Origin: an uncultured Nannocystaceae bacterium
Lineage (GTDB): Bacteria; Myxococcota_A; Bradymonadia; UBA7976; UBA1532
DNA length: 64,000 nt
NCBI GenBank assembly: GCA_964384025.1
Contig: CAYLJJ010000002.1
Span: 130,189 to 194,188 of the forward strand
Reading direction: 5' to 3'
Positions 3 to 40,619 of this stretch are shown piece after piece. Each line of letters begins with the position of its first letter. The stretch's first letter is position 1. A model generated the notes under the pieces. The model was not told the origin of the DNA, ran no database searches, and was given only the letters and a program-made list of their open reading frames with translations. The translations under genes and the position numbers were made by a program.

Positions 3-3000
3 CAGCGCGAGGTTAAGGCTTACGCGAACTCAGATCGAGATGGTTGGCGAATACATCCCAGACATCTTACCTGGATCATCCCTCATGTAGCTGTGGGACA
101 ACATCACTTCAAAATCCAAGTGCAGAAGATGTCCACAGGGGTGAGTCAATGCCTCTCTGGCTGGCCCAACGGAGCGACAGCCAATAGCCTCTCGGTGCAA
201 GAGATAGAGCCTGCCTCTTTAGGAATCATCCGTGAGATGGCTTACACCAACAGCACCCCTAATGTTTGGACCGCTCTCCCTGGTCGAGATCTGACTCATA
301 TCAAGGAGGAGGCTGCTACCCAGATCCGCATCAGCTATCTGGATACTTTGGGCACCAACATGCTTACGCGGGGTTGGGGTTGTCGTTGGCGCCTCACTGT
401 CGATGGAGAGGCCCACGGTCGTCCCTTCAACACCTATAACAGCGACGCTACTGGCTGGAGGATGGATCCCAGTCACCTTCAGTGGATCATCAGCGATCTC
501 CCAGCCGGTTCCCACCGTTATCGCATCGAAAATTTGCGCCCTGATAACGGCAGCACCGAATATTGCCGCGCAGGCTGGTCCAGCCCTCAGAATCATCTCT
601 TGGCGGAGGAGATTCACCCTGTTCCGGCAGCTGGAGATGGCGGTGACCCCATCCCCGCGCGCACCCCCAGCCCCGATGTCAGTGGCTATTTTGCAGACAA
701 CCGTCACTCTCCTCTTGATTGGGAGGATCTGCCTGGACGCAGCTTTAGTTTTGAGAAGCAGGCAGAGGATACAACCCTCCGAGTGAACTACGAAGATGTC
801 TTGGGCTATGACATGATCAGCGAAAACCCAGCCTGCGCTTGGCGTCTTCAGGTTGATAACATCAATTATGAACCCTTCGCGGGCTTCTCCAGCTCGGCGC
901 TGGGTTTGCGGCTCTGGCCCAGCAGTCTGGAGTGGTATCTGGAGGGCCTGCGAGCTGGAGTGCATAACTTCCAGATTCAGGTACGTCAACTTCCAGGCGC
1001 AGGACAGTGCCTCGCGGGCTGGATCGAGGGAGAGACGGAGAACTTTATTGAGGTAGAGGAGCTGGACTCTGCTCGCCTCGCGATCACTCAAGGGATGAGC
1101 GAGGAGGTCACCGCATCGACCTCTTGGGTTGATGTCCCTGGCCGCAGCGTGACCTACCAGAAGCAGGATGAGGAGACACACCTTAAGGTCTCCTATATGG
1201 ACAACTTGGGCTACAACATGAAGTCCTCAGGCGTTGGCTGTCACTGGCGCTTGACCATGGATGGGGCGGTGATGCAGCAAGAGGTTAAGACCTATAGCAA
1301 CACCAGCCATGATGGTTGGCGGATCCACCCCAGGCACCTGGTCTGGGTCCTTCCCCATATTGCGATGGGACAACACACCTTCAAACTCCAGATCATCAAG
1401 GCATCGACAGGGGTCAGTCAGTGCCTCACAGGTTGGCCCAGCGGGGGGGTAGGGAACAGCTTTGTGGTCCAAGAGCTTGATGTCGATGAGGCCAGCATCA
1501 TTCGGAATCTCAGTTATCAGCAATCCGCGCCTGATGTATGGACCAACATCACCAGTCGAGATCTAGTTCATGAGAAGCGGGGCGCTCACACTCAGGTGAG
1601 GATCACCTATACGGACACCTTGGGGATTACGATGACGACTCGAGGCTGGGGTTGTCGTTGGCGTCTCACCGTAGATGGAGCGGTGAGGGGGCGCCCCTTC
1701 AACACCTATAACAGCGACGCGACCGGTTGGCGTACAGATCCCAGCTATCTTCAGTGGGTGGTCAATGATCTGGAACCAGGAGAGCACCGCTATAGGATAC
1801 AGCTGCTGCGCCCAGATGCGCAGACAAGCAGCGCCTGTAGAGCAGGGCACGGCTCACCTCACAACTTCCTTTTTGTTGAGGAGGTCAACCCAGAGGTGAT
1901 CGACGACAGCCTCCCCACCGCAGGGCGAGAAGCCAGCACCGAGGTCAGCGACTACGCTCCAGACAGTCGCCTCAGTCCAGGGGCCTGGACTGATCTACCT
2001 GGGCGCCTCTTCCTGTTTAATAAGGCGACAGCTGAGAGCACGCTGCGGGTGAACTATGCAGATGTCCTGGGCTATGACATGCAAGCTGAGGGTCCCGCTT
2101 GTTCCTGGCGTTTGAGCGTCAATGGAGCTGCGACGCGCAGCTTTGGAGGGAACAGTAGTCAAGCCCATGGCCTGCGACTCTGGCCTACAAACCTGGAATG
2201 GTTCCTCAAAGATCTGCCCGCTGGTCCCCTGGAATTCAAGATCCAAGTTCTTAAAGGGGCTGGAGCTACTCAGTGCTTAGCGGGTTGGCAACAAGGTGAT
2301 GCTGAGAACTTTATCGAGGTGGAGGAGTTGGACTCCTACTATGTTGGGGTCACCGAAGAGATGGGGGAGAGCGCAACGGCATCTACAAGCTGGGTAGATG
2401 TACCTGGTAGAGTGCTGGTGTATGAAAAAAAGGAAGATGATAGCGCCATGAAGGTTCATTATATGGATAACCTTGGCTATAATATGTCATCAAGCGGCTG
2501 GGCCTGCAACTGGCGTTTACTTATGGATGATAAAGTCATCCAACAAGAGGCAAAGGCTTATAGTAACACAAGTAAGGATGGATGGCGTACACATCCTAAT
2601 AACCTCTCTTGGTTGATCTTAGACGCGGCCTTGGGAGAGCACACCTTCAAGATCCAAGTCATCAAGGCTTCTACAGGAGTCAGTCAGTGTGTCTCCGGCT
2701 GGCCCAACGCAGAGGTCGCCAACAGCCTCAGCGTTCAGGAGTTCAATGGGGGAGAGATGGCCCTCAAGCGAGAGATGGCTTACACCAACAGTACTCCTAA
2801 CAGCTGGAGCAATCTGCCCTCACGTGACATTGTTCATGATAAACAGGAGGTGGAGAGTCAGATCCGAGTGACCTATACAGATACCCTAGGGACCAGCATG
2901 CTCACTCGGGGTTGGGGCTGCCGTTGGCAGCTCACCGTAGACAATGAGGTCAAGGGTCGTCCCTACAGCAGCTATAACAGCAACGCTACGGGTTGGAGGA

Positions 3001-5684
3001 TGGATCCCAGCCGCCTTCAGTGGATCGTCAACGGTCTGAGCACCGGGGCTCATCAGTATCGTATTCAGCTCGTTCGTCCAGATACACTCACCACCGAATA
3101 CTGTCGTGCAGGCTGGTCCAGCCCTCAAAACTCTCTATTGATCGAGGAGATTGGTCGCGAGGTCCCAGAGCCACCTCCAGGGCTGCCTCCTCGGGTGGCC
3201 AGCGCCGAGGTGAGCGATTACCTCGCCTATACAGAGTTGAGCCCTCAGGACTGGACAGATCTGCCTGGACGAGAGTTTGGCTTTAACAAGAGCTCAGCGG
3301 AGAGCGTCCTGCGCCTTAACTACAGCGACATGTTGGGCTACAACATGAACAGCGAAGGCCCCGCCTGCTCCTGGCGTCTCTTGGTGGACAACACGCCCAC
3401 TCGAACCTTTGGAGGCTTCAGCAGTGAGGCTCGAGGGGTACGGCTCTGGCCCAGCAGCTTAGAATGGCACCTAGAGGGCCTCAGCCAGGGGGCTCATCAG
3501 TTCAAGATCCAGGTCAAGCGAGGTGCAGGGGTCTCTCAGTGCTATGCAGGCTGGTCTGATGGAGAGGCAGAGAACTTCATTGAGGTAGAGGAGCTGGAGG
3601 CCAGCCGTACAGGGATCACGCTGCATATGGGCGAGAACGCAACTAACTCCACAAGCTGGGTGGATCTCCCTGGTCGTACATTAATTCACCATAAACAAGA
3701 GGATCCAACCATTATCAAGGTCTCTTATATGGACAATTTGGGCTATAACATGTCTGCGGCAGGCTGGGCTTGTCACTGGCGTTTGCTCATGGATAATGCC
3801 GTGGTTCAGAAGGAGGCCATGGCCTATGCCAACTCCAGCCATGATGGCTGGAGAACACACCCGCATAATCTATCCTGGGTCATTCCCCATGTTTCTATGG
3901 GACAACATACATTCAAGATTCAAGTTAAGAAGCTCTCTACTGGAGTCAGCCAATGTATATCAGGTTGGCCCGATGGACAGGTGGCCAACGCTCTGGTAGT
4001 TCAAGAGTTTGATGGCAGTGATATCGCCATTCGACAAGATCTTTCCTATGTATCCAGTGCTCCTAACAGTTGGACAAATATCACTAATCGAGACCTAAAC
4101 CATGAGAAGAAGGCTGAAGCAAGCCAGATCCGCGTCACTTATGTAGACAGTCTAGGCGTAGAGATGCTCCTGCGAGGTCAGGGCTGTCGTTGGCAGCTCA
4201 CGGTCGATGATCAGCCCCAGGGTCGCCCCTACAACACCTACAACAGCGAGGCTACAGGTTGGCGCCTGGGCTACGGTAAGATGCAGTGGATCATCAACGG
4301 CTTGAGCGCAGCATCTCACAACTACAAAGTCCGGATGGTTCGCCCCGATGCGAGCCGAACGAACGCGTGTAGGCAGGGCTGGAACACACCCCAGAACTAC
4401 CTTATGGTCGAGGAGATTGGTCATCAACCTCAGGCCCCTGTCCCTCTGCCCGATCGAGGCGCCAGCGCCCAGAACAGCGGAAACTTTCCTGAGAATCAGC
4501 AAAGCTCAAACGCCTGGGAAGATCTCCCAGGGCGTAGCTTTGACTTCAATAAAGCTGGAGCGGCGAGCAATCTGCGGGTGAGCTACTCCGATGTCTTGGG
4601 CTATGACATGATCGGGGAGGCTTCCGCCTGTGCTTGGCGCCTGCTCTTGGATGGTGTTGCTCAAAAGAGCTTTGGGGGCTACTCCAGCAAAGCGAACGGC
4701 CCTCGGCTCTGGCCTACGAAGATGGAGTGGTACTTTGAGGGCTTGGCGGCGGGCGCTCACAACCTGAAGATCCAGCAGCGACGTGATGCTGGAGCGGGGC
4801 GCTGCTTGGCGGGCTGGCCTGATGGAGAAGCGGAGAACTTCATTCAGGTGGAAGAGCTGGCTCCCGACCGCTCGGAGATTGTCCAGGATATGGGAGAGAG
4901 CGCTACAGCCTCCACAAGCTGGGTGGATGTCCCAGGGCGCAGCCTCAGCTATAATAAAGCGGAGGAGCTGAGCCTATTGAAGGTCTCCTACATGGACGAC
5001 CTGGGTTACAATATGAACGCCGCCGGTTGGGCTTGTCACTGGCGTCTGCTTATGGATGGTACTGCCGTGCAGCAGGAGGCCAAAGCCTATGCCAATGCAC
5101 GCAAGGGCTGGCGTACGCATCCCCGAGATCTCAATTGGGTGATCTCCGATGTTCCCTCAGGCCCGCATGACTTTAAGATCCAGGTAAAAAAGATGTCCAC
5201 AGGGGTGAGTCAATGCATCTCGGGATGGCCCAATGGTGGCGTAGCCAACAGCTTCGTGGTTGAGGAGGTCCCAGAGGATTCGCTTACGATCATCCGGGGG
5301 ATGGCCTACACCAACAGCACCCCTAACTCCTGGACCGCTCTCCCCAGCCGCGATCTGAGCCACACCAAGGCGGAAGCCGGCACTCGAATCCGGGTCAGCT
5401 ATATGGACACCATCGGCACCAGCATGCTCAAGCGAGGCTGGGGTTGTCGTTGGCGTCTCAACGTGGATACCCTGCCTCAGGGTCGCATCTACAGCAGCTA
5501 TAACAGTGATGCTACAGGCTGGCGAATGGACCCGACAGAGATGGAGTGGATCATCCCAGGATTGCCTGCCGGAGAGCATCGCTATCGCATCGAATTGCTG
5601 CGTCCAGACAACACCACCACCGAATACTGCCGCGCCGGTTGGTCCAGTCCTCAGAACTTCCTTCTCATCGAAGAGCTGCCCTGA
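3..5684 (+). CDS. 5'-truncated giant secreted or surface repeat protein, built from about 4.4 tandem copies of a 422-aa (A-B-C) supermodule; each roughly 140-aa module carries conserved Trp residues and two Cys; family not recognised
   Basis: The frame-3 reading frame is open from the first bases of the window (QREVKAYANSDRDGWRIHPRHLTWIIPHVAVGQHHFKIQV precedes the track's Met at 93), so the gene starts upstream of the window. The motif G(Q/E)H.FKIQV.K.STGVSQC..GWP recurs at about nt 100, 1370, 2637, 3903 and 5163, giving a period of about 1267 bp. Other repeated motifs are LGYNM..G..C.WRL and GWR.HP..L.W. Confidence 0.75.
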   Translation, partial: QREVKAYANSDRDGWRIHPRHLTWIIPHVAVGQHHFKIQVQKMSTGVSQCLSGWPNGATANSLSVQEIEPASLGIIREMAYTNSTPNVWTALPGRDLTHIKEEAATQIRISYLDTLGTNMLTRGWGCRWRLTVDGEAHGRPFNTYNSDATGWRMDPSHLQWIISDLPAGSHRYRIENLRPDNGSTEYCRAGWSSPQNHLLAEEIHPVPAAGDGGDPIPARTPSPDVSGYFADNRHSPLDWEDLPGRSFSFEKQAEDTTLRVNYEDVLGYDMISENPACAWRLQVDNINYEPFAGFSSSALGLRLWPSSLEWYLEGLRAGVHNFQIQVRQLPGAGQCLAGWIEGETENFIEVEELDSARLAITQGMSEEVTASTSWVDVPGRSVTYQKQDEETHLKVSYMDNLGYNMKSSGVGCHWRLTMDGAVMQQEVKTYSNTSHDGWRIHPRHLVWVLPHIAMGQHTFKLQIIKASTGVSQCLTGWPSGGVGNSFVVQELDVDEASIIRNLSYQQSAPDVWTNITSRDLVHEKRGAHTQVRITYTDTLGITMTTRGWGCRWRLTVDGAVRGRPFNTYNSDATGWRTDPSYLQWVVNDLEPGEHRYRIQLLRPDAQTSSACRAGHGSPHNFLFVEEVNPEVIDDSLPTAGREASTEVSDYAPDSRLSPGAWTDLPGRLFLFNKATAESTLRVNYADVLGYDMQAEGPACSWRLSVNGAATRSFGGNSSQAHGLRLWPTNLEWFLKDLPAGPLEFKIQVLKGAGATQCLAGWQQGDAENFIEVEELDSYYVGVTEEMGESATASTSWVDVPGRVLVYEKKEDDSAMKVHYMDNLGYNMSSSGWACNWRLLMDDKVIQQEAKAYSNTSKDGWRTHPNNLSWLILDAALGEHTFKIQVIKASTGVSQCVSGWPNAEVANSLSVQEFNGGEMALKREMAYTNSTPNSWSNLPSRDIVHDKQEVESQIRVTYTDTLGTSMLTRGWGCRWQLTVDNEVKGRPYSSYNSNATGWRMDPSRLQWIVNGLSTGAHQYRIQLVRPDTLTTEYCRAGWSSPQNSLLIEEIGREVPEPPPGLPPRVASAEVSDYLAYTELSPQDWTDLPGREFGFNKSSAESVLRLNYSDMLGYNMNSEGPACSWRLLVDNTPTRTFGGFSSEARGVRLWPSSLEWHLEGLSQGAHQFKIQVKRGAGVSQCYAGWSDGEAENFIEVEELEASRTGITLHMGENATNSTSWVDLPGRTLIHHKQEDPTIIKVSYMDNLGYNMSAAGWACHWRLLMDNAVVQKEAMAYANSSHDGWRTHPHNLSWVIPHVSMGQHTFKIQVKKLSTGVSQCISGWPDGQVANALVVQEFDGSDIAIRQDLSYVSSAPNSWTNITNRDLNHEKKAEASQIRVTYVDSLGVEMLLRGQGCRWQLTVDDQPQGRPYNTYNSEATGWRLGYGKMQWIINGLSAASHNYKVRMVRPDASRTNACRQGWNTPQNYLMVEEIGHQPQAPVPLPDRGASAQNSGNFPENQQSSNAWEDLPGRSFDFNKAGAASNLRVSYSDVLGYDMIGEASACAWRLLLDGVAQKSFGGYSSKANGPRLWPTKMEWYFEGLAAGAHNLKIQQRRDAGAGRCLAGWPDGEAENFIQVEELAPDRSEIVQDMGESATASTSWVDVPGRSLSYNKAEELSLLKVSYMDDLGYNMNAAGWACHWRLLMDGTAVQQEAKAYANARKGWRTHPRDLNWVISDVPSGPHDFKIQVKKMSTGVSQCISGWPNGGVANSFVVEEVPEDSLTIIRGMAYTNSTPNSWTALPSRDLSHTKAEAGTRIRVSYMDTIGTSMLKRGWGCRWRLNVDTLPQGRIYSSYNSDATGWRMDPTEMEWIIPGLPAGEHRYRIELLRPDNTTTEYCRAGWSSPQNFLLIEELP
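3..5684 (+). repeat. Intragenic tandem DNA repeat, period about 1.27 kb, about 4.4 copies; the first and last copies are nearly identical over about 30 nt
   Basis: 'aagatgtccacaggggtgagtcaatgc' is present at about nt 125 and again at about nt 5190; intermediate copies are diverged. Confidence 0.7.
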
Positions 5685-10135: not shown

Positions 10136-11044
10136 ATGAGGCTCAAAACCATATCTCCTCTTCTGCCTCTGCTCCTCCTGGGCTCTCTAAGCTGCCAGGG
10201 AGAGGATGAGCCCAATCCTTTCGAAGACAGCGGCCCTCTGGATATCATCTGTCAGCCCAACTGTGAGGAGCTGGAATGTGGCCCAGACCTCAGCTGCGGA
10301 GCCAACTGCGGTCTCTGCTCTACCGGCCTCCTCTGTCGAGAGGGGCGCTGTATTGAGGAGAGCTGCGAATCTGATTGTGAGGAGCTGGAGTGCGGTTTTG
10401 ATCCGATCTGTGGGCTCTCTTGTGGTGAATGCAGTGAAGAGGAGGGCTGCAACAACGGTCGTTGTGTTTCCATGGCTTGTGAGCCAGAATGTGGTATGCG
10501 CGAGTGTGGTTCAGAACCACACTGTGGACAATCCTGCGGAAGCTGTAGTGACACCGAACGTTGTAACAACGGGCAGTGTGTTTCTGCTGTCTGCCAGCCT
10601 GATTGCGAGCATCGAGAGTGTGGTGTCGATGCTATTTGCGGACAGAGCTGCGGGAGCTGTGATGGTACCGAACGTTGTGATACAGGGCACTGCGTCTCAG
10701 CTGTGTGCGTGCCCGAGTGTGAGGGTTTGGAGTGTGGCGTTGATCCCCTCTGCGGGCAGAGCTGCGGGAGCTGTGATGATACTGAGCGCTGTGATACAGG
10801 GCGCTGCGTTCCCGCAGGATGTCAGCCCAACTGCGAGGAGCGGATCTGCGGTCCGGATCCCATCTGTGGTCAATCCTGCGGGAGCTGCGCTCTTACAGAT
10901 CGCTGTGAGGAGGGCCGCTGTCTCCCTGCAGGCTGTCAGCCCAATTGTACCGGCTTAGAGTGTGGGGTGGATCCGGTCTGTAGCTATTCCTGTGGGACCT
11001 GTGAGGGTGTGGAGCGCTGTATAGATGGGCGCTGTGTCCGTTGA
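10136..11044 (+). CDS. Secreted lipoprotein with nine tandem roughly 31-aa Cys-rich repeats (C.P.CE..ECG.D..CG.SCG.C.....C..G.CV), Myxococcus-type cysteine-rich repeat
   Basis: Signal peptide with lipobox (LLLLGSLSC) and a regular 6-Cys repeat unit. Confidence 0.75.
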   Translation: MRLKTISPLLPLLLLGSLSCQGEDEPNPFEDSGPLDIICQPNCEELECGPDLSCGANCGLCSTGLLCREGRCIEESCESDCEELECGFDPICGLSCGECSEEEGCNNGRCVSMACEPECGMRECGSEPHCGQSCGSCSDTERCNNGQCVSAVCQPDCEHRECGVDAICGQSCGSCDGTERCDTGHCVSAVCVPECEGLECGVDPLCGQSCGSCDDTERCDTGRCVPAGCQPNCEERICGPDPICGQSCGSCALTDRCEEGRCLPAGCQPNCTGLECGVDPVCSYSCGTCEGVERCIDGRCVR

Positions 11045-11164: not shown

Positions 11165-11914
11165 ATGCGCTCTATCCCTCTTATCTGCATCGCCAACGCG
11201 CTGCTTCTATCGCTACTCCCTCTTAGGGCTCAGGCAGCCTCTTTTGAAGAGAGCCGTGATCAAGGCACCCTCTATTTCAAGAAGGGGCACTTCAAGCTGG
11301 CTAAGCTCAAGTTAGACGGTGCGTATCGAACCCCTCAGGGAAAGCAGGACTTTCGCACGCTCTATTATCGAGGGCGCAGCGCTCAAAAACTGCTCCTCTT
11401 GGAGACCGCCTTTGAGATGGCCAAAGCGGCGGGTAAGCTCCCTGAGCTGAGCAAAAAAATGAAGTCTAAACTCTTAGAATTTCAAGGTGAACTCGACGAT
11501 TTCTATGGCCCTGTCTATATCAAGCCAGCCAAGGGAGAGACCAACAGTAAAGGGCGCATCTTTCTAGAGTCTAAGACGGGGATCATCAACCGCCAGAAGA
11601 AACGGGTCTTTCTCTCTATTCGAGAGCGCTTTCGCGCTCTGGAGGTCAGCCTGCCTCTGCGTATCTATCTGCCCTATGGGGACTATCTGGCCAACAACAT
11701 TCCCTTCACCATCGCTCGTGGTGAAAAGGAGCCTGTGGTCAATGCCTTCCTACAGATCATTGTTGTCCCCAAGGAGAGCAAGCTCTGGTGGTATGTGGGG
11801 ATCGGCGGCGCCACCGCTGTTGCCGCTGGCTTGGGCGCTTTTCTACTCCTCAATCAAGATGATGCAAAAGTTGAAGATCGACTTATACCCAGGCTCCCGC
11901 AGGAGGAAAGATGA
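11165..11914 (+). CDS. Hypothetical secreted protein with an N-terminal signal peptide and a C-terminal TM anchor
   Basis: MRSIPLICIANALLLSLLPLRAQA signal; C-terminal WWYVGIGGATAVAAGLGAFLLL; stop overlaps the next gene's start. Confidence 0.5.
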   Translation: MRSIPLICIANALLLSLLPLRAQAASFEESRDQGTLYFKKGHFKLAKLKLDGAYRTPQGKQDFRTLYYRGRSAQKLLLLETAFEMAKAAGKLPELSKKMKSKLLEFQGELDDFYGPVYIKPAKGETNSKGRIFLESKTGIINRQKKRVFLSIRERFRALEVSLPLRIYLPYGDYLANNIPFTIARGEKEPVVNAFLQIIVVPKESKLWWYVGIGGATAVAAGLGAFLLLNQDDAKVEDRLIPRLPQEER

Positions 11915-14900
11915 TGATAAAGAGATCTCCAAAGTTCCTCTTGCTGCTCTCAGGTCTGCTCCCCTTAAGCGCCTGTGATGAGAGCGTTAAGTATGAAGAT
12001 CGAACACTGAACATCAGTCTGAACGCTTGTTTGGGAGATAGAGAAGCCTCTGAAGAGGGCCTCGCCAGCACCTGCCGAACACGCTTGGATCAGCGCGTGG
12101 CCGCCTCTGAGAGCAACGCCTGTTTGCTGATCAGAAGGACAGAGGAGGGCAGCGAAGTGCACCCTCTACCGCTGCGCTGGCAAGAGGGTCGGATGTCCTT
12201 CTTGGAGCAGGGTGAGCTGCCCCTGGCTGTAGGCCAGGAGATCGAGGCGGAGCTTTACCTCTTCAGCGCTGAGGAGGAGGCGGGGAGTTGCACCAGGGGC
12301 TTGGCCTTTGGAAGCGCTTGTGAGACCACGACAGGCTGCCTACTCAAGCTGATCCAAACGCCCAGTTCCATCGGAGAGAAGGGCCTTGAGTTTGACTTTG
12401 GAGGCGATAGTGGAGCTTGCCGTACCGAAGGCCCTCTGGACTCTGAGGAGGAGGCGGAGATCTGCGATGGCGCTGACAATGACTGTGATGGAGAGATCGA
12501 TGAGGGTGAGCCAGGTGCCGGTGAAGCTTGTGACAGCGGCGCCTTGGGCATCTGTCAACCTGGGATTCAGACCTGCGTAGAGGGCACGATCCGCTGTGAC
12601 AGCCTGAGCGGACCTGAGCAGGAGATCTGTGGAGATGGCTTGGATAATGATTGTGATGGAGAGCTGGATGAGGAGATCGGCTGGCGACCCAACCCTGAGG
12701 CGGAGACCATCTTCATCGGCCAGCCCTGTGAGCAGGGGCAGGGGCTTTGCCGAGCCTCTGGAACGGTGGTCTGCAACCCAGAAAATCCAAGAGAGGGGCT
12801 CTGTGATGCTCAGCCAGGAGAGGCTGATGTGGAGATCTGTGACGCCCTAGACAATGACTGTGATGGAGAGACTGATGAGGGCTTTGAGTTGGGGATGCCC
12901 TGTACCGTGGGGCAGGGAGAGTGTCGTCGAGAGGGGCTGAGCATCTGTGAAAACGGGGGGATGGGTTGTAATGCTCAGAGCGGAGAGATGAGCCCAGAGA
13001 TCTGCGATGGGAAGGACAATGATTGTGATGGTCTAGAAGATGAAGATTTCCCAGAGCTTTCTCAAAGCTGTTCGCTGGGTGTAGGTGCCTGTCTTCGTGA
13101 GGGGACCTTTGCCTGCAGAGCCGACAATCTGGGGAGTGAATGTAACGCCCGGACTGGATCTCCTGCCCAGGAGATCTGCGGAGATGAGCTGGACAATGAC
13201 TGTGATGGGGAGACTGACGAGGACTTCCGGGAGTTGGGGCAAGCTTGTGAAGTGGGTATCGGTGAGTGTAAGCGCCATGGGGTACGGATCTGTGACCCCA
13301 ACCTCCTCACCCGGATGCGTTGTAGCGTTGACGCTGCAGAACCGGGCGTGGATGACAACTGTGATGGCTTAGATGATGACTGTGATGAGGAGCTTGATGA
13401 GCACTATGAGTCCAGCACAGTTGAGTGTGGCGAGGGAGCTTGTGGCGCTGTCGGTCAGCTGATCTGTCGAGGGGGAGAGGAGCAGAGCACCTGTCGAAGT
13501 GGAGAACCCGCAGAAGATGACGCCAACTGTGATGATATCGATGATGATTGTGATGGAGAGCTGAACGAAGATTGGATCATCCTACCTACCGCCTGTGGTG
13601 TGGGCGCCTGTGCTGCTGCTGGGCGCTTGGTCTGTGTTCGAGGAGAGACTCGGGACACCTGCCAGGAGGGAGAGCCTGCTGTTGACGATTCAAACTGTGA
13701 TGGCCGAGATGATGACTGTAATGGTGAAGTGGACGAGGAGTTCCAGGGCCAGGCGACAGAGTGTGGGGTGGGGGCCTGCTGGGCCACAGGGCATACACGC
13801 TGTGAAGAAGCTCAGATTTTAGACAGCTGCCAACCTGAGGAGCCCGCCGTTGATGACGCCACTTGCGACCTCATCGATGACGACTGCGATGGAGATATGA
13901 ATGAGGATTGGGAGATTTTACCAACGCAGTGCGGCATCCAGGCCTGCGCTTCTACGGGAAGCTTGATCTGCGTTCAGGGCGAAGTTCAAGACACATGTCA
14001 TCCTCGAGAGCCTGCCGCTGATGACGCCAACTGCGATGGTGTTGATGATGATTGCGACGAGATATTTGATGAAGATTTCCTGAGCCAGGCGACGAGCTGT
14101 GGTGTGGGCGCCTGCGCCGCCACCGGCCGTACAGAGTGCTGCCATACAGAAGAGTGTGGTGGTGCGCAGATCATAGACACCTGCACAGCTGAAGAGCCCA
14201 TCAGCGCTGATGATGCTACCTGTGACGCCATCGACGATAACTGTAATGGCAACTTTGATGAGGACTTCTCCAGTCAGGAGACAGAGTGTGGGCGGGGAGA
14301 GTGTCATGCTCAGGGCCTCACCTTCTGTGTACAGGGGGTGGTACAGGACAGCTGTGTACCTGAGCACCCCGCTGCTGATGACGCCAGCTGTGATGGTCGC
14401 GATGATGACTGCGATGGGGAGTTTGACGAAGACTTCTTAAGCCAAGAGACCCGCTGTGGTGTGGGCGCCTGTGCTGCGACAGGCCAAACCGAGTGTATCG
14501 ACGCGCAGATCATAGACAGCTGCGTTCCGGGAGAGCCTGCTCTTGACGATGTGACCTGTGATGCCATCGACGATAACTGCAATGGCAGCTTTGATGAGGG
14601 CTTCTCGAGCCAGGAGACGGAGTGTGGGCGGGGAGAGTGTCATGCTCTGGGCCGCACCTTCTGTGTCCAGGGTGAGGTGCAAGACAGCTGCGCACCCAGG
14701 CTCCCTGCCGAGGGGGACGCCAGCTGCGACGGTCGAGATGATGATTGTGATGGCAGCTTTGATGAAGACTTTCTTGGCAACGCCACCGAGTGTGGCGTGG
14801 GCGCTTGTGCAGCGGGGGGGCAGATCCTCTGTGTTGAAGGGAGACTCCAAGACAGCTGCACACCGAGGCCGCCTGCCGCCGATGATGTCAGCTGTGATGG

Positions 14901-17796
14901 CGTCGATGATGATTGTGATGCATTGATCGACGAGGATTTTCAGCGGGTGGTTGTCCAATGTGGTGAGGGATCCTGTGGAGACTCAGGAGAGACCATCTGT
15001 ATCAACGGCCAGGAGGAGGACACTTGCGCGCCAGGGACTCCTGCGCTCAATGACGCCAGCTGCGACGGTGTTGACGATGACTGTGATGGAGTGACGGATG
15101 AGGATTACCTCCCACAGGAGACTCAATGCGGCGTTGGTGCTTGCGCCTCTACAGGCTTGCTGAGCTGCGTCAATGGCGCTGAGCAGGACAGCTGTATCGC
15201 TGGAGATCCTGCTCCAGACGACGCCAGTTGTGATGGTGTAGATGATGATTGTGATGGCCGCTTCGATGAGAACTACCGCTCTTTGGAGACCCAGTGCGGC
15301 CAGGGAGAATGTCTGTCTCAAGGTCGTACCTTCTGTATCCAGGGGGTGGTGGAGGACAGCTGTGAAGAGGGGCAGGTGGCCCCCAACGATCCTACTTGCG
15401 ATGGTCGGGATGATGACTGTGATGGCCGCTTCGATGAGGACTATATCAGACAGGAGCCTCAGTGTGGGATTGGCGCCTGCGTCAGCACAGGGCGTACACG
15501 TTGCCAAGGTGGCCGTATCCTAGACTCCTGCCGACCTCTTCATCCTGCGGACGATGACGCCACCTGCGACAACATCGATGATGACTGTGACGGGATCCGC
15601 GACGAGAACTTCCTCTTTCAGGAGACAGAATGTGGTCGAGGAGAGTGTCTCGCCCAGGGCCGCACCTTCTGCGTCCAGGGGGTCTTGACCGACAGCTGTG
15701 TGCCTGGAGAGCCCGCCGGTGATGATCCCAGCTGTGATGGTCGAGATGATGACTGCGATGGAGAGGATGATGAAGATTATCTGAGCCAGGGCACCGAGTG
15801 TGGTGTGGGTGACTGCTTCGCTGAGGGGGTCACTCTCTGTGTCGCTGGAGAGATCCAAGACAGCTGTACGCCTGGGGATCCCGCCAATGATGATGCCACC
15901 TGTGATGGTATCGATGATGACTGCGATGCGCTCACAGATGAGGATTTTGTTCGTGAGCCGGTGGTCTGCGGTGAGGGCTCCTGTGGAGACTCGGGAGAGA
16001 CCATCTGCATTAACGGTGGGGAAGAGAACACCTGCGCACCGGGAGAAGCCGCTGGGGATGATGCCACCTGCGATGGTGTCGATGATGATTGTGATGGGGT
16101 GACCGATGAGGACTATACCCCACAACGAACTCAGTGTGGTGTAGGGATCTGCGTCTCTACCGGATGGCTGAGCTGTGTTGGTGGCGTAGAGCAGGACAGC
16201 TGCGTTACTGGAGATCCCGCGATTAATGATGCCAATTGCAACACTGTAGATGATGATTGTAATGGTGAAGTTGATGAAGACTATCCAGTTGAAGCAACCA
16301 GCTGTGGTGTTGGCCCTTGTGCGGCTGTTGGATTATTGACCTGTGATAATGGTGCAATCACCGATTCCTGCACTCCAGGAGTTCCTGCTAATAGTGATGC
16401 CAGCTGTAATGGAAACGATGACAATTGCAATGGGGCTGTAGATGAGGAGTACCTTGGCGAAGAGACCGTTTGTGGTATTGGTGAGTGTATAAGAACGGGC
16501 CGGATTTTTTGTGTTAATGGGAGCGAACAAGATTCTTGTGTAGAAGGAATTCCAGGGAACGATAATAATTGCGATGGACGCGATAATGATTGTGATGGAG
16601 AGATTGATGAACATTATCTCGTCCAGCAAACAGAGTGCGGTATAGGCCCCTGTATTTCTCAAGGACATACGCGCTGTGTAAATGGAACAGTTGAAGATGA
16701 TTGTATCCCTGGAGTGCCGCCAGGAGAAGACACGAACTGTGATAATATAGACAATGACTGCGATGGTACTGTTGATGATGATTATGTTCGAGTCGTCATC
16801 GAATGTGGTGAAGGATCTTGTGGAGAGGCTGGAGAAATAATATGTGTCAATGGACAGGAATACAACACATGTCAGCCAGGAGAGCCTGCTGCCGATGACA
16901 GCACATGTGATGGGATTGACGATGACTGTGACGGGGAGACAGACGAAGACTATGTAAGACAGAACACATCATGTGGAATTGGTCTATGTGTCTCTCAAGG
17001 GACTCTGAAATGCGTAAATGGCGCAGAGCATGACAGCTGTGTTCCTGGTAATGGGGCTGTAGATGATTCAACCTGCGATGATATTGATGATGACTGTGAT
17101 GGGCAAAGCGATGAAGAGTACTCCCCTCCAGTGACAAACTGTGGTGTAGGAGCCTGCGCCGCACAGGGCCTCCTCAATTGTCAGAATGGAGTTGAAGTAG
17201 ATACTTGCAGTCCGGGCGTGGCGGGAGACGAACTCTGTGGAAACCTATCGGATGATGATTGTGATGGAGAGGTAGATGAGGGTTTCCCCAATCTGGAGCA
17301 GGACTGCATTGTGGGTCAGGGAGAGTGTGAAGAGGCAGGGATCTTGGTCTGTACCGCAGATGGTCTCAACACCACCTGTAGCGTGAGCCCTACCGAGCCC
17401 CAAAATGAGATCTGCGATGGTTTGGACAATGACTGTGATGGGGATGTGGATGAAGAAAACCCAGGCGGTGGCGCACCCTGTAGCATGGGGGAGCAAGGGG
17501 TCTGCGACACTGGGCTGATTGAGTGTATTGGCGGAGCTCCCGCCTGTGTTCAAATCCAGGGAGCTGAAGCGGAGATCTGCGATGGTTTGGACAATGATTG
17601 CGATGGGGATACGGATGAAGAGCTGGGGCAGAGCACCTGTGGTCTGGGGATCTGTGAGAACACTGTAGATAATTGTCTATTGGGAGAGGAGCAGCTCTGT
17701 GAGCCCTTAGATCTCGCTGTCGCTGAGATCTGTGATGATGGATTGGATAATAACTGTGACGGTGATGTAGACGCAGCGGACGCTGGCTGCCCCTAA
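11911..17796 (+). CDS. Giant (1961 aa) lipoprotein composed of about 40 tandem MopE-like putative metal-binding repeats (C.G.G.C...G...C..G...D.C.PGEPA.DD..CDG.DDDCDG..DED)
   Basis: RBS GAGGAGG; lipoprotein signal LLSGLLPLSAC; (E/A)ICDG.DNDCDGE.DE or CDG.DDDCDG..DED motifs recur about every 45-50 aa through the whole protein. Confidence 0.8.
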   Translation: MMIKRSPKFLLLLSGLLPLSACDESVKYEDRTLNISLNACLGDREASEEGLASTCRTRLDQRVAASESNACLLIRRTEEGSEVHPLPLRWQEGRMSFLEQGELPLAVGQEIEAELYLFSAEEEAGSCTRGLAFGSACETTTGCLLKLIQTPSSIGEKGLEFDFGGDSGACRTEGPLDSEEEAEICDGADNDCDGEIDEGEPGAGEACDSGALGICQPGIQTCVEGTIRCDSLSGPEQEICGDGLDNDCDGELDEEIGWRPNPEAETIFIGQPCEQGQGLCRASGTVVCNPENPREGLCDAQPGEADVEICDALDNDCDGETDEGFELGMPCTVGQGECRREGLSICENGGMGCNAQSGEMSPEICDGKDNDCDGLEDEDFPELSQSCSLGVGACLREGTFACRADNLGSECNARTGSPAQEICGDELDNDCDGETDEDFRELGQACEVGIGECKRHGVRICDPNLLTRMRCSVDAAEPGVDDNCDGLDDDCDEELDEHYESSTVECGEGACGAVGQLICRGGEEQSTCRSGEPAEDDANCDDIDDDCDGELNEDWIILPTACGVGACAAAGRLVCVRGETRDTCQEGEPAVDDSNCDGRDDDCNGEVDEEFQGQATECGVGACWATGHTRCEEAQILDSCQPEEPAVDDATCDLIDDDCDGDMNEDWEILPTQCGIQACASTGSLICVQGEVQDTCHPREPAADDANCDGVDDDCDEIFDEDFLSQATSCGVGACAATGRTECCHTEECGGAQIIDTCTAEEPISADDATCDAIDDNCNGNFDEDFSSQETECGRGECHAQGLTFCVQGVVQDSCVPEHPAADDASCDGRDDDCDGEFDEDFLSQETRCGVGACAATGQTECIDAQIIDSCVPGEPALDDVTCDAIDDNCNGSFDEGFSSQETECGRGECHALGRTFCVQGEVQDSCAPRLPAEGDASCDGRDDDCDGSFDEDFLGNATECGVGACAAGGQILCVEGRLQDSCTPRPPAADDVSCDGVDDDCDALIDEDFQRVVVQCGEGSCGDSGETICINGQEEDTCAPGTPALNDASCDGVDDDCDGVTDEDYLPQETQCGVGACASTGLLSCVNGAEQDSCIAGDPAPDDASCDGVDDDCDGRFDENYRSLETQCGQGECLSQGRTFCIQGVVEDSCEEGQVAPNDPTCDGRDDDCDGRFDEDYIRQEPQCGIGACVSTGRTRCQGGRILDSCRPLHPADDDATCDNIDDDCDGIRDENFLFQETECGRGECLAQGRTFCVQGVLTDSCVPGEPAGDDPSCDGRDDDCDGEDDEDYLSQGTECGVGDCFAEGVTLCVAGEIQDSCTPGDPANDDATCDGIDDDCDALTDEDFVREPVVCGEGSCGDSGETICINGGEENTCAPGEAAGDDATCDGVDDDCDGVTDEDYTPQRTQCGVGICVSTGWLSCVGGVEQDSCVTGDPAINDANCNTVDDDCNGEVDEDYPVEATSCGVGPCAAVGLLTCDNGAITDSCTPGVPANSDASCNGNDDNCNGAVDEEYLGEETVCGIGECIRTGRIFCVNGSEQDSCVEGIPGNDNNCDGRDNDCDGEIDEHYLVQQTECGIGPCISQGHTRCVNGTVEDDCIPGVPPGEDTNCDNIDNDCDGTVDDDYVRVVIECGEGSCGEAGEIICVNGQEYNTCQPGEPAADDSTCDGIDDDCDGETDEDYVRQNTSCGIGLCVSQGTLKCVNGAEHDSCVPGNGAVDDSTCDDIDDDCDGQSDEEYSPPVTNCGVGACAAQGLLNCQNGVEVDTCSPGVAGDELCGNLSDDDCDGEVDEGFPNLEQDCIVGQGECEEAGILVCTADGLNTTCSVSPTEPQNEICDGLDNDCDGDVDEENPGGGAPCSMGEQGVCDTGLIECIGGAPACVQIQGAEAEICDGLDNDCDGDTDEELGQSTCGLGICENTVDNCLLGEEQLCEPLDLAVAEICDDGLDNNCDGDVDAADAGCP
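12420..17760 (+). repeat. Intragenic tandem repeat array (about 135-150 bp units, about 40 copies) encoding the MopE-like repeats
   Basis: Periodic gatgatgactgtgatgg / gacaatgactgtgatgg DNA motifs. Confidence 0.7.
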
Positions 17797-20666: not shown

Positions 20667-22865
20667 TTAGCCAGGATCAGCGTCGATAAACTGATCGAGG
20701 CGCTTGAGCAGCTCAGCGCCAGCCTCAGGGTTTTTCTCTAAGAGGTTCCTCTTCTCAGCGGGATCCTCTTTGACGTTAAACACCTCGGTGACATTGGCGC
20801 TGAGCTGTCGGATCACCTTGTAATCTCCTGAGAGGAGCCCAACGGTGTGCTTCTCCCAGTGAGGATAGGGCAGGTTCTCCATAAAGATCAGACGATCTTC
20901 AGCAGGAGGAGTTCCCATGCCATGGAGGAGCGCATCAAAGCTCTGCCCCATCGCCTGAGGAGCCTTGAGTCCGGTCAACGCGGTGAGGGTGGGCAAGAGG
21001 TCGATGAGGGCGATGGGCTGCTTGATGCGCTTGGGCTCAGCTCCCGGCATACGGATCAGCAGAGGGACACGGATCTCTTCATCGTAGAGGTTGCGACCGT
21101 GAAAATGGACCCGATGCTCTTTAAAAGCCTCGCCATGATCGGAGAAGAGCATAACGATGGTGTTTTCATAGAGCTTTTGCTCCTCTAGAGCATCAAAGAC
21201 CTTCTGAAGGTGGTGATCTACATAAGCAATCTCACTGTCATATTTGTCCATCAGCTTCTTGCCAAAGAGCTTCACCCGTCTGTGGTTCATATAGCGGCTA
21301 TGTGGGTCAAAGAAATGGACAAAGAGCAGGAAGGGGGCCTCCTCTTTCCCAAGAGCCTCAAGGCGCTTGACTGCTCGAGGGGCCAGGAGTTGAGCTGTTG
21401 TCTGGGTGTTGCTCTCCTTGATGGAGAGGAAGCCCCGGTTGTCCCAATGATCGACCCCCTGCTTGATGCCTCGAGCCTTCTCCCAATACCAATGAGCGCT
21501 CACCACCTCGGTGCGCCACCCCCCCGCTTGGAAGATCTCAAAGAGCGTCTCATTCTCCGGTCGGATACCGCCAAAGCGAGCAAAGCGCTTCCTCCACTTG
21601 ACACGCGAGGGGTAGCGTCCTGTGAATATCGAGGGGAAGGAGCGAGGGGTGTTGGGGGCCTGGGCATAGACTCGCTCAAAAACCAGGGCATCTTGAGCCC
21701 AGCGGGCGATGTTGGGGCTGGTCTCACGCTCATAGCCATAGAGCCCCATATGATCTGGGCGCACCGTGTCGATCACGAGCATCAAGATGTTGAAACGCTT
21801 GGGCTCCCAGCGCGGTGGGGCAATCGCAGCGGCCTCTGGCGCTGGTGCCTTCAGCGCTGGCGTTGGGGGGGGTGGCTCCTTGGGAGCATCACCTCCTCGG
21901 CAGTTGTCATCTATACCGTTGCCAGGGATCTCCCGTGCCTGGGGGTGGATCTCAGGGTTCTCATCGTCACAATCTCCCCCTGAGAGCCGCGTGGAGAAGC
22001 CATCACCATCGCCATCCAGAAGCTTGCGCCCCATCTCCAGGGCCAAACGCCCCAAGTGAGCTTTGAGAGGCATGATCTGCATCGCCACCGGTGAGCTTTC
22101 AAAGCGCAGCACTGCCCAAGTAGCGCTCCCAAGGGTGATGATGAGCAGCAGCAGGGTTACAGGCCAGCGCCCAAAGAAGCCCCGCGCTACGAGCAGGAGC
22201 AACAGGCTCAACGAGAGCCCCATCAAGGCAGCAAAGTAGGGCTCTAGACGGTAGGCGCCCAGATCCAGGGCGAAGATCTTAAGAGCTACGAACACGCCCA
22301 AGGAGAGCAGCGCCAGGAGGGGGTAAGCGGGGAGAGGCAGGAGCAGGCGCCCTGAGGGAGCCAAGCGCTTGAGCAGCCCTCGGCTCCCCAGATAGAGCGC
22401 GGGGTAGAAGATCAGCCCTAAGCTCAGACCCGCCAGAGTTCCCAGGGCTACAAAGGGGCCGGTGAAGCTGGAGTTGGCGAAGCCATGCGCGATCTTGCCC
22501 GCCACAAAGGCTCCAGCCAGCACTGGGAGCAAACTCAAAGGTCCCGCGATCCAGATCGCCGCGCGCCGCTGCAAGGTAGCGGCGGAGATCTGAGCCTTGG
22601 GCCAGAGGGCGCTCTTGAGGCTCTGTCCTGGGCGAAAAAGCTTCACAAAGGGGGGCAGAAGCAGCGCGATGAGTAGAGCCAAGGGCAGGCTCAAGAGCCC
22701 GACCAACCCCAGCTGATGGATCAGGGCATGGAGGCCAGCGCTCAGGCTGGCTCCCTCCATTGCGCCCTGCGTCATCAACAGGAGCAGTTCAAGAGCTGCG
22801 ATCAACAGAAAGGCGGCCAGGGTGGCGGCCAGAGCGGCGAGGGGCGTTGGGGATGTCTCTTTCAC
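20667..22865 (-). CDS. Polytopic membrane protein with a C-terminal alkaline-phosphatase-superfamily (sulfatase or phosphotransferase-like) domain; one isolated MopE-like metal-binding motif lies in the linker
   Basis: About 9 N-terminal TM helices; NILMLVIDTVRPDHMG...APNTPRSFPSIFTGRYPS (Thr or Ser nucleophile type); linker GDGDGFSTRLSGGDCDDENPEIHPQAREIPGNGIDDNCRGGD. Confidence 0.6.
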   Translation of the reverse strand: MKETSPTPLAALAATLAAFLLIAALELLLLMTQGAMEGASLSAGLHALIHQLGLVGLLSLPLALLIALLLPPFVKLFRPGQSLKSALWPKAQISAATLQRRAAIWIAGPLSLLPVLAGAFVAGKIAHGFANSSFTGPFVALGTLAGLSLGLIFYPALYLGSRGLLKRLAPSGRLLLPLPAYPLLALLSLGVFVALKIFALDLGAYRLEPYFAALMGLSLSLLLLLVARGFFGRWPVTLLLLIITLGSATWAVLRFESSPVAMQIMPLKAHLGRLALEMGRKLLDGDGDGFSTRLSGGDCDDENPEIHPQAREIPGNGIDDNCRGGDAPKEPPPPTPALKAPAPEAAAIAPPRWEPKRFNILMLVIDTVRPDHMGLYGYERETSPNIARWAQDALVFERVYAQAPNTPRSFPSIFTGRYPSRVKWRKRFARFGGIRPENETLFEIFQAGGWRTEVVSAHWYWEKARGIKQGVDHWDNRGFLSIKESNTQTTAQLLAPRAVKRLEALGKEEAPFLLFVHFFDPHSRYMNHRRVKLFGKKLMDKYDSEIAYVDHHLQKVFDALEEQKLYENTIVMLFSDHGEAFKEHRVHFHGRNLYDEEIRVPLLIRMPGAEPKRIKQPIALIDLLPTLTALTGLKAPQAMGQSFDALLHGMGTPPAEDRLIFMENLPYPHWEKHTVGLLSGDYKVIRQLSANVTEVFNVKEDPAEKRNLLEKNPEAGAELLKRLDQFIDADPG

Positions 22866-40350: not shown

Positions 40351-40619
40351 CTTTACCTCCCCAGCGGTGCTCATCTCACCGCTTAAGTTTGGGCGAACCT
40401 AAACTCCGACTATACGGGGTAAACAGATCTCTGCAACAGTGGAGTTGGCCGGTCGGAGGCTACCGAATTTGATGATTGAATCATTTTCAAGGTTTACGCC
40501 CGCTCACCGCTCCGGCAATAACGTGAGTCTCATGACTGATTTTCATGACATTAGAAACCGCTAAGGTCTTGGAAGGAAGGTCTCAATTAGATTCTCCTTG
40601 GCGGCTATGTGACGAGTAG

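Follow-up and report, generated by a model that had tools for sequence, protein, structure and literature searches.

The 64,000-nt stretch of Nannocystaceae DNA analysed here (the window) contains a single reading frame for a 1961-aa protein consisting largely of acidic repeats. The locus raises the questions of whether such an array is real and whether its repeats, which match a family named after a copper protein, handle copper at all. A preliminary description had proposed a 1961-aa lipoprotein at 11911-17796, and both a single ORF and an N-terminal lipobox were found there (Table 1). Residues 1-22 read MMIKRSPKFLLLLSGLLPLSAC and end in L-S-A-C, which fits the lipobox pattern [LVI][ASTVI][GAS]C. 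A lipobox was also present in the orthologues (LAAC, LIGC, VSGC, and LASC) and in most of the 34 proteins sharing the N-terminal domain. This confirmed signal predicts a lipid-anchored lipoprotein with Cys22 as the anchor residue. The non-repeat domain that follows matched no Pfam or NCBIfam family at E ≤ 10. It is rare, being found in 34 cluster representatives among 1.84 billion, and always occupies the N-terminal position.

Table 1. Coordinates of the giant lipoprotein gene, its parts, and the upstream gene within the window.
Feature	Coordinates	Strand	Residues	Remarks
Upstream 249-aa protein	11165..11914	+		Signal peptide and C-terminal TM helix; its stop and the giant-gene start share 4 nt (ATGA)
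Giant lipoprotein gene	11911..17796	+	1961 aa	Stop codon within coordinates; from the ORF list
Predicted lipoprotein signal peptide	11911..11976	+	1-22	Lipobox LSAC, Cys22 predicted to be lipidated; read from the sequence
Non-repeat N-terminal domain	11977..12441	+	23-177	7 Cys; no Pfam/NCBIfam match
A-type modules u1-u5	12442..13338	+	178-476	55-70 aa each; EICDGxDNDCDGExDE and Cys-rich beta-subdomain
B-type core array u6-u28	13339..17214	+	477-1768	PAxDDxxCDGxDDDCDGxxDED[FY]...CGxGxC...G...C..G...DxC; 20 units of exactly 56 aa
Most recent detectable duplication	14205..14910	+		Covers u11-u14; Tandem Repeats Finder
A-type modules u29-u31	17215..17709	+	1769-1933	
C-terminal capping half-module u32	17710..17793	+		DLAVAEICDDGLDNNCDGDVDAADAGCP; 3 Cys

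Repeat arrays of this size had been described as prone to assembly error; long tandem arrays do misassemble at times in metagenomes, and the source organism is uncultured. If assembly had inflated or collapsed the repeat, or if the ORF were chimeric, the 1961-aa gene would not exist. Such an artefact is extremely improbable, because the units share a mean DNA identity of only 57% and at most 82%, and no exact repeat exceeds 28 nt, which is shorter than any read. The frame is open all along, and both array ends are orthologous to those of P0004. The exact protein from the window is already in NCBI (P0001, 100% identity), and an independent ENA assembly yielded a protein of the same length, 1961 aa, with a single substitution (P0121, 1960/1961 identical residues). 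The concern over assembly errors was not borne out. The gene is real, correctly assembled, and a very large member of the "MopE-related" group.

The repeat array spans residues 178-1961, corresponding to 91% of the protein. The Pfam search suggested in the preliminary description was run on the whole protein and returned PF11617 (Cu-binding_MopE, also titled "putative metal-binding motif") as the sole family match, in 8 separate stretches with E = 1.1e-55 and 186 bits. The motif, with the consensus acidic-x-x-C-D-G-x-D-[DN]-D-C-D-G-x-x-D-E-[DE]-aromatic, was counted 32 times rather than the roughly 40 times first estimated, compared with 0.02 ± 0.14 copies expected from 2000 composition-preserving shuffles. 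The statement that the protein is made almost entirely of repeats holds for the array but not for the motif proper, which accounts for merely ~31% of the protein. The true repeat unit is a six-Cys module of 51-70 aa, typically ~56 aa and exactly 56 aa in 20 modules, and the array, with 31 complete units and a half-module at its end, amounts to 31.5 modules.

Each module combines the acidic PF11617 motif with a small three-stranded beta-sheet lacking any Pfam coverage, and about two thirds of the 56-aa module lie outside any family model. AF2 prediction of residues 820-987 from an 85-sequence module alignment reached a pLDDT of 95.8; in the model, every module begins with an irregular loop and continues into three strands. 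Profile searches of PDB chains found no match to the 56-aa module. Against the 30-position PF11617 profile, for which the gathering threshold is 27 bits, single A-type units scored 24-27 bits and B-type units 14-21 bits or not at all. The change of repeat sub-type noted earlier, from EICDGxDNDCDG to PAxDDxxCDGxDDDCDG, does occur at unit 6 but reverses at unit 29, and therefore A-type modules (units 1-5 and 29-32) flank a B-type core (units 6-28).

The array had also been called evolutionarily labile, and the orthologues, which carry 17-27 motifs, agree with this. Units u1-u5 pair one-to-one with units 1-5 of P0004, and u29-u31 with its units 23-25. The B-type core modules map many-to-one onto the same orthologue, indicating segmental duplications in the core. 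The most recent of those detectable consists of 2.1 copies of a 336-nt (two-module) unit with 76% identity, within which u11 and u13 share 82% of their DNA sequence. Conservation extends to the modules at both ends, to the cap, and to the N-terminal domain, which suggests a defined, polar assembly.

The name of the family invites the reading that this is a copper-binding or copper-scavenging surface protein, kin to MopE/CorA of methanotrophs. Besides the name and the E-value of the match (1.1e-55), the NCBI label "MopE-related protein" given to its relatives speaks for this reading. However, the Cu(I) site of MopE is formed by His132, His203, and kynurenine-130 (PMC3423442), whereas no module position carries a conserved His, Trp, or Met across the 32 units; their 12 His and 5 Trp are scattered, and His and Trp make up 0.7% and 0.3% of the residues of the whole protein. 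PF11617 represents a small, non-specific part of MopE/CorA (PMC6189053), and in searches of all PDB chains, including 2VOV, MopE chains were matched neither by phmmer at E ≤ 1 nor by two module profiles at E ≤ 10. The Cys count is even, the invariant Cys pattern is typical of disulfides and not of thiolate ligands, and Ca2+ is the metal bound by the one relative of the motif with a solved structure. We therefore consider the copper reading very unlikely, and copper handling is not supported as the role of the giant lipoprotein. MopE (PDB 2VOV) does resemble it in having the short motif, in being secreted or surface-associated, and in being stabilised by Ca2+, which shields MopE from proteolysis (PMC3423442). 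In contrast, MopE is not a tandem-repeat protein, and the giant lipoprotein lacks the MopE* fold. Its identification as a true MopE/CorA copper protein was rejected, as the His/His/kynurenine site is absent and the PDB searches showed no similarity beyond the short motif.

The motif more probably resembles a calcium-binding loop of the TSP3/teneurin C-rich kind, which is the better-supported assignment on sequence grounds. The C-rich domain of teneurin-4 was aligned to PF11617 by Tucker et al. (PMC3278476). Its 1.5 Å structure contains three Ca2+ bound in TSP3-like and LDLR-A-like geometry, with sites I and II fitting TSP3 geometry, and the ligands are E835, D840, D843, N844, D845, D847, D851, D854, and D856 (PMC9058538). 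When the 7PLP sequence was compared with the array, all 32 motifs had an acidic residue or Asn at each position equivalent to the first seven of these nine ligands. The equivalents of D854 and D856 are not conserved, an aromatic residue standing in their place, and the Ca2+ stoichiometry is consequently uncertain.

The giant lipoprotein and human Ten4 (residues 834-871, PDB 7PLP) share the acidic motif C-x-D-x-x-D-N-D-x-D-G-x-x-D, as well as six Cys and three disulfides per unit, the disulfides and the extracellular position being predictions for the giant lipoprotein. They differ in that the teneurin domain occurs once, is 38 aa long, and has both a CC pair and a conotoxin-like tail, whereas the bacterial unit is repeated 31 times, includes a beta-sheet subdomain, and has Cys in place of Gly846. 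Alignment of the motif profiles with the teneurin C-rich domain by hhalign gave 77% probability and E = 2e-5 over 15 columns. The likeness is confined to the motif level: sequence similarity is not significant at database scale, and the module profiles retrieved no teneurin chain from the PDB at E ≤ 10. The sole PDB match of the A-type profile, an EF-hand Ca2+ loop, was not significant. TSP3 repeats (PF02412 and PF18884; M. xanthus MtsC and CglD) likewise present tandem Asp-rich Ca2+ loops of the DxDxDG type in extracellular adhesive proteins, and in TSPs they are disulfide-stabilised, as predicted for the modules described here. No Pfam TSP3 match was obtained for the giant lipoprotein, which differs in Cys spacing and in its additional beta-sheet subdomain. 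The original suggestion of a metal (Cu/Ca)-binding surface or matrix protein can thus be kept for a predicted secreted, lipid-anchored protein with a metal-binding-type motif and for calcium, but not for copper.

The giant lipoprotein contains 199 Cys, namely, the lipid-bearing residue and 198 others, with odd numbers in both the N-terminal domain and the last half-module. All six Cys were kept in 1653 of 1847 homologue modules, and 3-Cys caps resembling u32 close the arrays of >15 homologues. Judging from Cys parity and the cap analysis, none of the 198 non-lipid Cys need be left without a disulfide partner (99 disulfides predicted), and the rod geometry proposed below is drawn from the same two sources. 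Acidic residues outnumber basic ones by 485 to 72, giving a net charge of about -413 and an Asp+Glu content of 25%.

With moderate confidence, we propose that the protein is a giant lipid-anchored, Ca2+-stiffened, disulfide-stapled, polyanionic rod of the cell envelope. Cleavage by signal peptidase II would leave Cys22 bearing the lipid anchor, followed by the rare ~155-aa N-terminal domain, 31 tandem ~56-aa modules, and the capping half-module. Each module would consist of an acidic Ca2+ loop of the TSP3/teneurin C-rich kind and a three-stranded beta-sheet held by disulfides, three per module. The last Cys of a module is placed with the acidic loop of the next one, so neighbouring modules would be covalently stapled. 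At about 2 Ca2+ per motif, a molecule might bind roughly 60 or more, a figure subject to the uncertain stoichiometry, and the loaded chain would be stiff, resistant to proteases, and strongly polyanionic, forming a rod whose extended length is of the order of 100 nm. By analogy with fibrillin cbEGF arrays and the Ca2+-rigidified repeats of giant bacterial adhesins, it would most likely act at the cell surface or in the matrix, as a spacer, in adhesion, or as a structural element.

The charge could also be explained if the protein acted mainly as an ion exchanger or high-capacity sink for cations and not mechanically, an account that we regard as unlikely. The array would then serve as a Ca2+ buffer or store or take up other hard cations (Mg2+, Mn2+, Fe3+, or lanthanides) at the envelope, possibly with mineral nucleation. 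The net charge, the Asp+Glu content, the 32 multi-carboxylate loops, and the further giant acidic proteins encoded within the window would all suit it. The invariant six-Cys modules, the invariant aromatic residue, and the strict 56-aa period are, however, traits of structural repeats that a pure sink would not need, and the polar assembly suggested by the conserved ends and N-terminal domain also argues against it. The two roles are not mutually exclusive.

A narrower version of the envelope rod is contact-dependent recognition or adhesion in predation or kin interaction, with the B-type core serving as a length-tunable or specificity-bearing stalk. The relatives are restricted to predatory Myxococcota and Bradymonadia, the number of core modules differs among orthologues, and fusions of related arrays with YD/RHS toxin shells (P0063) or with Ig-like, lectin, and beta-propeller domains occur, all of which are consistent with this version. 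We nevertheless judge it improbable, as neither an effector nor a binding head can be recognised in the protein besides the uncharacterised N-terminal domain, which adjoins the lipid anchor and not the distal tip.

More than 3200 similar "MopE-related" proteins, uncharacterised and named by NCBI PGAP, occur in Myxococcota and Bradymonadia MAGs. With thousands of such annotated but unstudied proteins, the giant lipoprotein belongs to a known group, in which it is large but otherwise ordinary. Like it, these giants have the 56-aa six-Cys module, with 15-47 tandem motifs in 1000-3400 aa and 31-51% identity over most of the length; the exact 56-aa period was seen in 730 three-module windows among the top 120 matches. 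The closest orthologues (P0004, P0029, and P0047) have both the lipobox and the N-terminal domain, and among the 34 representatives with this domain the array described here (32 motifs) is the largest. Many relatives carry extra C-terminal Kelch, Ig, YD shell, or LamG domains, which are lacking here. Evidence from sequence points to a Ca2+-binding, disulfide-rich, structural module throughout the group, implying that the names "Cu-binding_MopE" and "MopE-related" mislead when given to thousands of giant proteins from Myxococcota and Bradymonadia. In the envelope of predatory Myxococcota, few proteins would be larger or more abundant than these.

In one bacterial homologue, P0063, a single chain carries both 56-aa MopE-type modules and teneurin-type C-rich motifs, along with a teneurin TTR domain and a YD shell. 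This co-occurrence favours the calcium reading of the motif and is a further concrete link for the proposed bacterial origin of teneurins. A bolder and rather unlikely possibility is that the 56-aa unit is a structurally unsolved domain, a bacterial relative or possible ancestor of the teneurin C-rich domain, and that the arrays form ~100-nm Ca2+-dependent stapled nanorods. Fibrillin cbEGF arrays and the Ca2+-rigidified giant adhesins (RTX adhesins and SiiE) also consist of tens of small modules with junctional Ca2+ that form a stiff, extended extracellular rod. Their folds are unrelated to that of the giant lipoprotein, and RTX adhesins are Cys-poor and secreted by type 1 systems, in contrast to a predicted lipid-anchored chain with 99 predicted disulfides. 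If they exist, the nanorods would be a bacterial analogue of fibrillin-type matrix fibres, acting in envelope spacing or contact in predatory Myxococcota.

The gene neighbourhood gave no functional clue. The upstream 249-aa protein is 50-65% identical to the products of genes directly upstream of orthologues P0029 and P0004, and it may be co-transcribed with the giant gene. Among 15 other GTDB species genomes carrying this partner, the giant gene lies downstream of it in two (L013 and L015, the P0029 and P0004 loci), and the association is confined to one clade. A conserved two-gene cassette was rejected, since the partner is mostly found without the giant gene. Further giant envelope proteins that are acidic or rich in Cys are encoded in the window; one of them, a TSP3-repeat protein of 3191 aa, weakly resembles MtsC and CglD, which function in cohesion and gliding in M. 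xanthus.

In the ORF list of the window, the giant gene is one uninterrupted ORF, and its 1961-aa product begins with a lipoprotein signal of typical form (residues 1-22, MMIKRSPKFLLLLSGLLPLSAC) in which the lipobox L-S-A-C can be read, in line with the lipoprotein named in the preliminary description. A Pfam profile search, the check proposed there for the MopE-like repeats, matched PF11617 Cu-binding_MopE ('putative metal-binding motif') at E=1.1e-55 as the sole Pfam-A family on this protein. NCBIfam gave no match for the window protein or its two upstream neighbours, and Pfam at E<=10 gave nothing on the N-terminal domain, the 249-aa partner encoded directly upstream, or the 302-aa neighbour. 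Scans for promoters and terminators returned site numbers not above those of shuffled controls. Counted by regular expression, the motif C[DGN]x(1-3)D[DN][DN]C[DN] occurs 32 times, not the roughly 40 times first proposed. Because same-composition shuffles (n=2000) contained only 0.02 +/- 0.14 PF11617-type motifs, the repeats are real and far above chance. Cutting at the motifs, which sets provisional boundaries, yielded the modules listed in the table, 20 of which have a length of exactly 56 aa. Only ~31% of the protein is motif proper, and Pfam covers only ~17 residues of each module, the remainder being a conserved segment, CGxGxC-x3-G-x3-C-x2-G-x5-C. A-type units scored 24-27 bits against PF11617 and B-type units 14-21 bits or none. 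The switch from A-type to B-type, which lies at unit 6, had been recognized before, but the return to A-type had been missed. The protein has an extreme composition: Asp makes up 14.5%, Glu 10.2%, Cys 10.1%, and Gly 12.7% of its residues, and the mature chain contains 485 acidic but 72 basic ones.

Features of the giant gene, its product, and other proteins encoded in the window
Feature	Position	Strand	Characteristics
Giant gene	11911..17796	+	1961-aa lipoprotein
N-terminal region	residues 1-177		non-repeat; cut at motifs
31 complete modules			51-70 aa, six Cys each; one exception with an extra inserted Cys pair; cut at motifs
Terminal half-module			28 aa, three Cys; cut at motifs
A-type EICDGxDNDCDG modules	units 1-5 and 29-32		flank core
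B-type PAxDDxxCDGxDDDCDG modules	units 6-28		core
1863-aa protein	93..5684	+	weak Pfam matches: MtxA Ig-like, CTHRC1 C-terminal domains
302-aa secreted protein	10136..11044	+	18.8% Cys; ~8 repeats C.P.CE..ECG.D..CG.SCG.C......C..G.CV
249-aa partner	11165..11914	+	signal peptide and C-terminal TM helix; no family match
Sulfatase (PF00884)	20667..22865	-	single PF11617 motif, residues 297-324
3191-aa protein	30799..40374	-	31.7% Asp+Glu; 36 DxDxDGxxDxxD (TSP type-3-like) motifs
1424-aa predicted lipoprotein	41019..45293	-	lipobox LSLAAC; 14% Cys

Repeat arrays of this size had been considered prone to assembly error, a concern that the DNA of this one does not bear out. The 56-aa units share a mean identity of 57% at the DNA level (maximum, 82%), the longest exact direct repeat within the giant gene is 28 nt, and Tandem Repeats Finder reported a single stretch only (336-nt unit, 2.1 copies, 76% identity). 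NCBI holds an identical protein on a 222.7-kb contig, and the protein encoded by an ENA record (214.3-kb contig) does not differ in length and is identical at 1960/1961 positions without gaps. It is thus very unlikely that the 1961-aa array is an assembly artefact, and as far as public data show, it does not collapse on re-assembly.

A homologue search of 5.8 billion proteins returned >3200 significant matches to the window protein. The best 120 were all 1000-3400 aa long with PF11617, came from MAGs of Myxococcota, Bradymonadia, and 'Deltaproteobacteria', and were named, where a name was given, 'MopE-related protein', 'hypothetical protein', or 'Notch-like protein'. Among them we counted 730 three-module windows at the exact 56-aa period, and the 56-aa module is therefore a domain both widespread and conserved. 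When 1.84 billion cluster representatives were searched exhaustively with HMMER, the N-terminal domain had only 34 matches, each at the very N-terminus; in most of these representatives it lies between a lipobox and MopE-type motifs. This domain defines a narrower orthologous group, no other member of which has an array as large as that of the window protein. When its modules were compared individually with those of P0004 (1667 aa), the closest orthologue, the A-type end modules mapped one-to-one and the B-type core many-to-one; for example, u15 and u21 of the window protein mapped to u15, and u11, u13, and u19 all to u13 of P0004. The core has therefore grown by segmental duplication between fixed ends, although the duplications are old, in keeping with the evolutionary lability suggested earlier for the array. 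Our literature search found no study of bacterial 'MopE-related' or 'Cu-binding_MopE' proteins. The window protein is already public; the group to which it belongs is very large and has been annotated but not characterised, and among its members this one is unusually large. Our additions are modest, namely the repeat count of 32, the A-B-A arrangement of sub-types, the 56-aa module as the repeat, the offset disulfides, the case for calcium over copper, and the link to teneurins through the homologue P0063.

The name of the Pfam family suggests that the window protein binds copper, as had also been proposed. The Cu(I) site of MopE is formed by His132, His203, and kynurenine-130 (PMC3423442), whereas the window modules have no conserved His, Trp, or Met. 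PF11617 spans just a small, non-specific portion of MopE (PMC6189053), and PDB searches with module profiles brought up no MopE chain even at E<=10; copper binding is therefore unlikely. Calcium, the other metal proposed, fits better. PF11617 has been aligned with the conserved Cys-rich region of teneurins by Tucker et al. (PMC3278476). The 1.5 A crystal structure of that region contains three Ca2+ and three disulfides, with E835, D840, D843, N844, D845, D847, D851, D854, and D856 as Ca2+ ligands in a geometry that resembles thrombospondin type-3 repeats and LDL-receptor A modules (PMC9058538). We compared unit 2 of the window protein (CGDGLDNDCDGELDEE) with the teneurin crystal sequence. In 32/32 motifs, Asp, Asn, or Glu occupies the equivalents of E835, D840, D843, N844, D845, D847, and D851, whereas those of D854 and D856 are not conserved and an invariant aromatic residue is found there instead. 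Profile-profile comparison of the MopE-type and teneurin-type motif sets gave 77% probability (E=2e-5, 15 columns), and the sole PDB match of the A-type profile, which was not significant (E=3.2), was the EF-hand Ca2+ loop of caltractin.

A further bacterial homologue, P0063 (3321 aa, JGI 'YD repeat-containing protein'), contains, in this order, a MopE-type array of 56-aa period, two teneurin-type C-rich motifs (CANNLDDDGDGSTDCSDGDC) of the form CxxxxDxDGDGxxDCxDxDC, a teneurin TTR-like domain (PF25020), and an RHS/teneurin YD shell. This order matches that of the teneurin ectodomain and bears on the proposed bacterial origin of teneurins, and P0063 ties the MopE-type and teneurin-type variants of the motif together in one chain. 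In addition, Ca2+ shields MopE itself against proteolysis (PMC3423442). Because of the conserved teneurin ligands, the profile comparison, the EF-hand match, P0063, and the protection of MopE, Ca2+ binding by the modules is the best-supported, though inferred, reading.

The window protein has 199 Cys, i.e., the lipid-modified Cys22 and an even number, 198, of others; the N-terminal domain has seven and the terminal half-module three, both odd. All six Cys were kept in 1653/1847 homologue modules. In more than 15 homologues the array ends in an exact three-Cys cap, consisting of C1, C2, and one Cys right after a DE[DE] run, and the window protein ends in the same cap (…CDDGLDNNCDGDVDAADAGCP). 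On the simplest reading of this parity, the provisional cut does not coincide with the structural unit: the acidic loop of module i+1 would go together with the last Cys of module i, and Cys170 of the N-terminal domain would take this role for module 1. A disulfide would then link neighbouring modules.

AF2 gave no usable model of three modules from a single sequence (pLDDT only 38). Given an alignment of 85 three-module sequences drawn from the window protein and its homologues, AF2 predicted residues 820-987 with confidence (pLDDT 95.8, pTM 0.64); in the model, every module starts with a ~26-residue irregular loop region that includes the acidic motif and continues with an antiparallel sheet of three strands. 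Neither the whole protein nor the A-type and B-type module profiles had a significant match among PDB sequences, and the larger part of the 56-aa module has neither a family model nor a solved relative.

We propose that the protein would be a lipid-anchored, surface-exposed chain of 31.5 modules. The acidic loop of each module would bind ~2 Ca2+, and three disulfides would lock the module, one of them stapling it to its neighbour. Such a chain would form a rod that is stiff, resistant to proteases, and highly anionic; its length may be ~100 nm in order of magnitude, an estimate taken from other small tandem modules and not calculated. Comparable rods elsewhere, such as fibrillin cbEGF arrays and the Ca2+-rigidified repeats of giant bacterial adhesins, are spacers, stalks, and adhesive or matrix fibres, and the window protein may have a similar structural or adhesive role. 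Ion buffering as the primary role is possible and not exclusive.

The stop codon of the 249-aa partner lies 4 nt inside the start of the giant gene (ATGA), and partner homologues of 50-65% identity are found directly upstream of the orthologues P0029 and P0004. We considered a conserved operon and largely rejected it. In a species-representative scan, the partner was found in 15 Myxococcota/Bradymonadia genomes (L005-L019, 43-65% identity), and the giant gene follows it in only two of them, those of P0029 and P0004; the pairing is therefore limited to a clade and does not form an obligate system. In the other genomes the next gene encodes a ~375-aa protein that is not Cys-rich and in most begins …EVSTPRQIADRPAAHCQAPRWSPDG. 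Shortly downstream of the giant gene, the orthologue loci have a second, smaller PF11617 protein (L001 10938-13142, 734 aa; L002 12033-13731, 566+ aa), whereas the window has a convergent gene for an SppA-type signal peptide peptidase on the opposite strand, followed by two sulfatases. The single copy in one sulfatase shows that the PF11617 motif also serves as a stand-alone module in enzymes of the window organism.

The other large or Cys-rich proteins of the window are of several kinds. Neither the 302-aa protein nor the 1424-aa lipoprotein, which has a ~67-aa repeat (C..EC..G..RC.GNG.Q.CGN.D.D.C.EW....PC.EGE.CS.G.C), matched Pfam or NCBIfam; some MopE-related homologues (P0043, P0059) have, towards their C-terminal side, CGxxGCGGSCGxC repeats like those of the 302-aa protein. 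The 3191-aa protein matched Pfam TSP3_bac and, in NCBIfam, weakly resembled two M. xanthus proteins, MtsC of cell cohesion and the gliding lipoprotein CglD; its C-terminus (…GGGGSSFC…LLFGFSIFTMRRRRR) looks like a putative MYXO-CTERM-type sorting tag. Judging from such predicted products, the window organism evidently commits much to giant envelope proteins rich in acidic residues and Cys. The 1863-aa protein at the window edge is also very large and probably extracellular. Within the giant gene, many antisense or out-of-frame ORFs of 100-201 aa were present (13455..17553, both strands); we rejected them as genes, as they look like by-products of its repetitive, stop-poor codon usage, rich in GAY/GGN/TGY. 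The strongly positive GC skew of the giant gene (+0.17 to +0.24) likewise looks like a by-product of repetitive codon usage.
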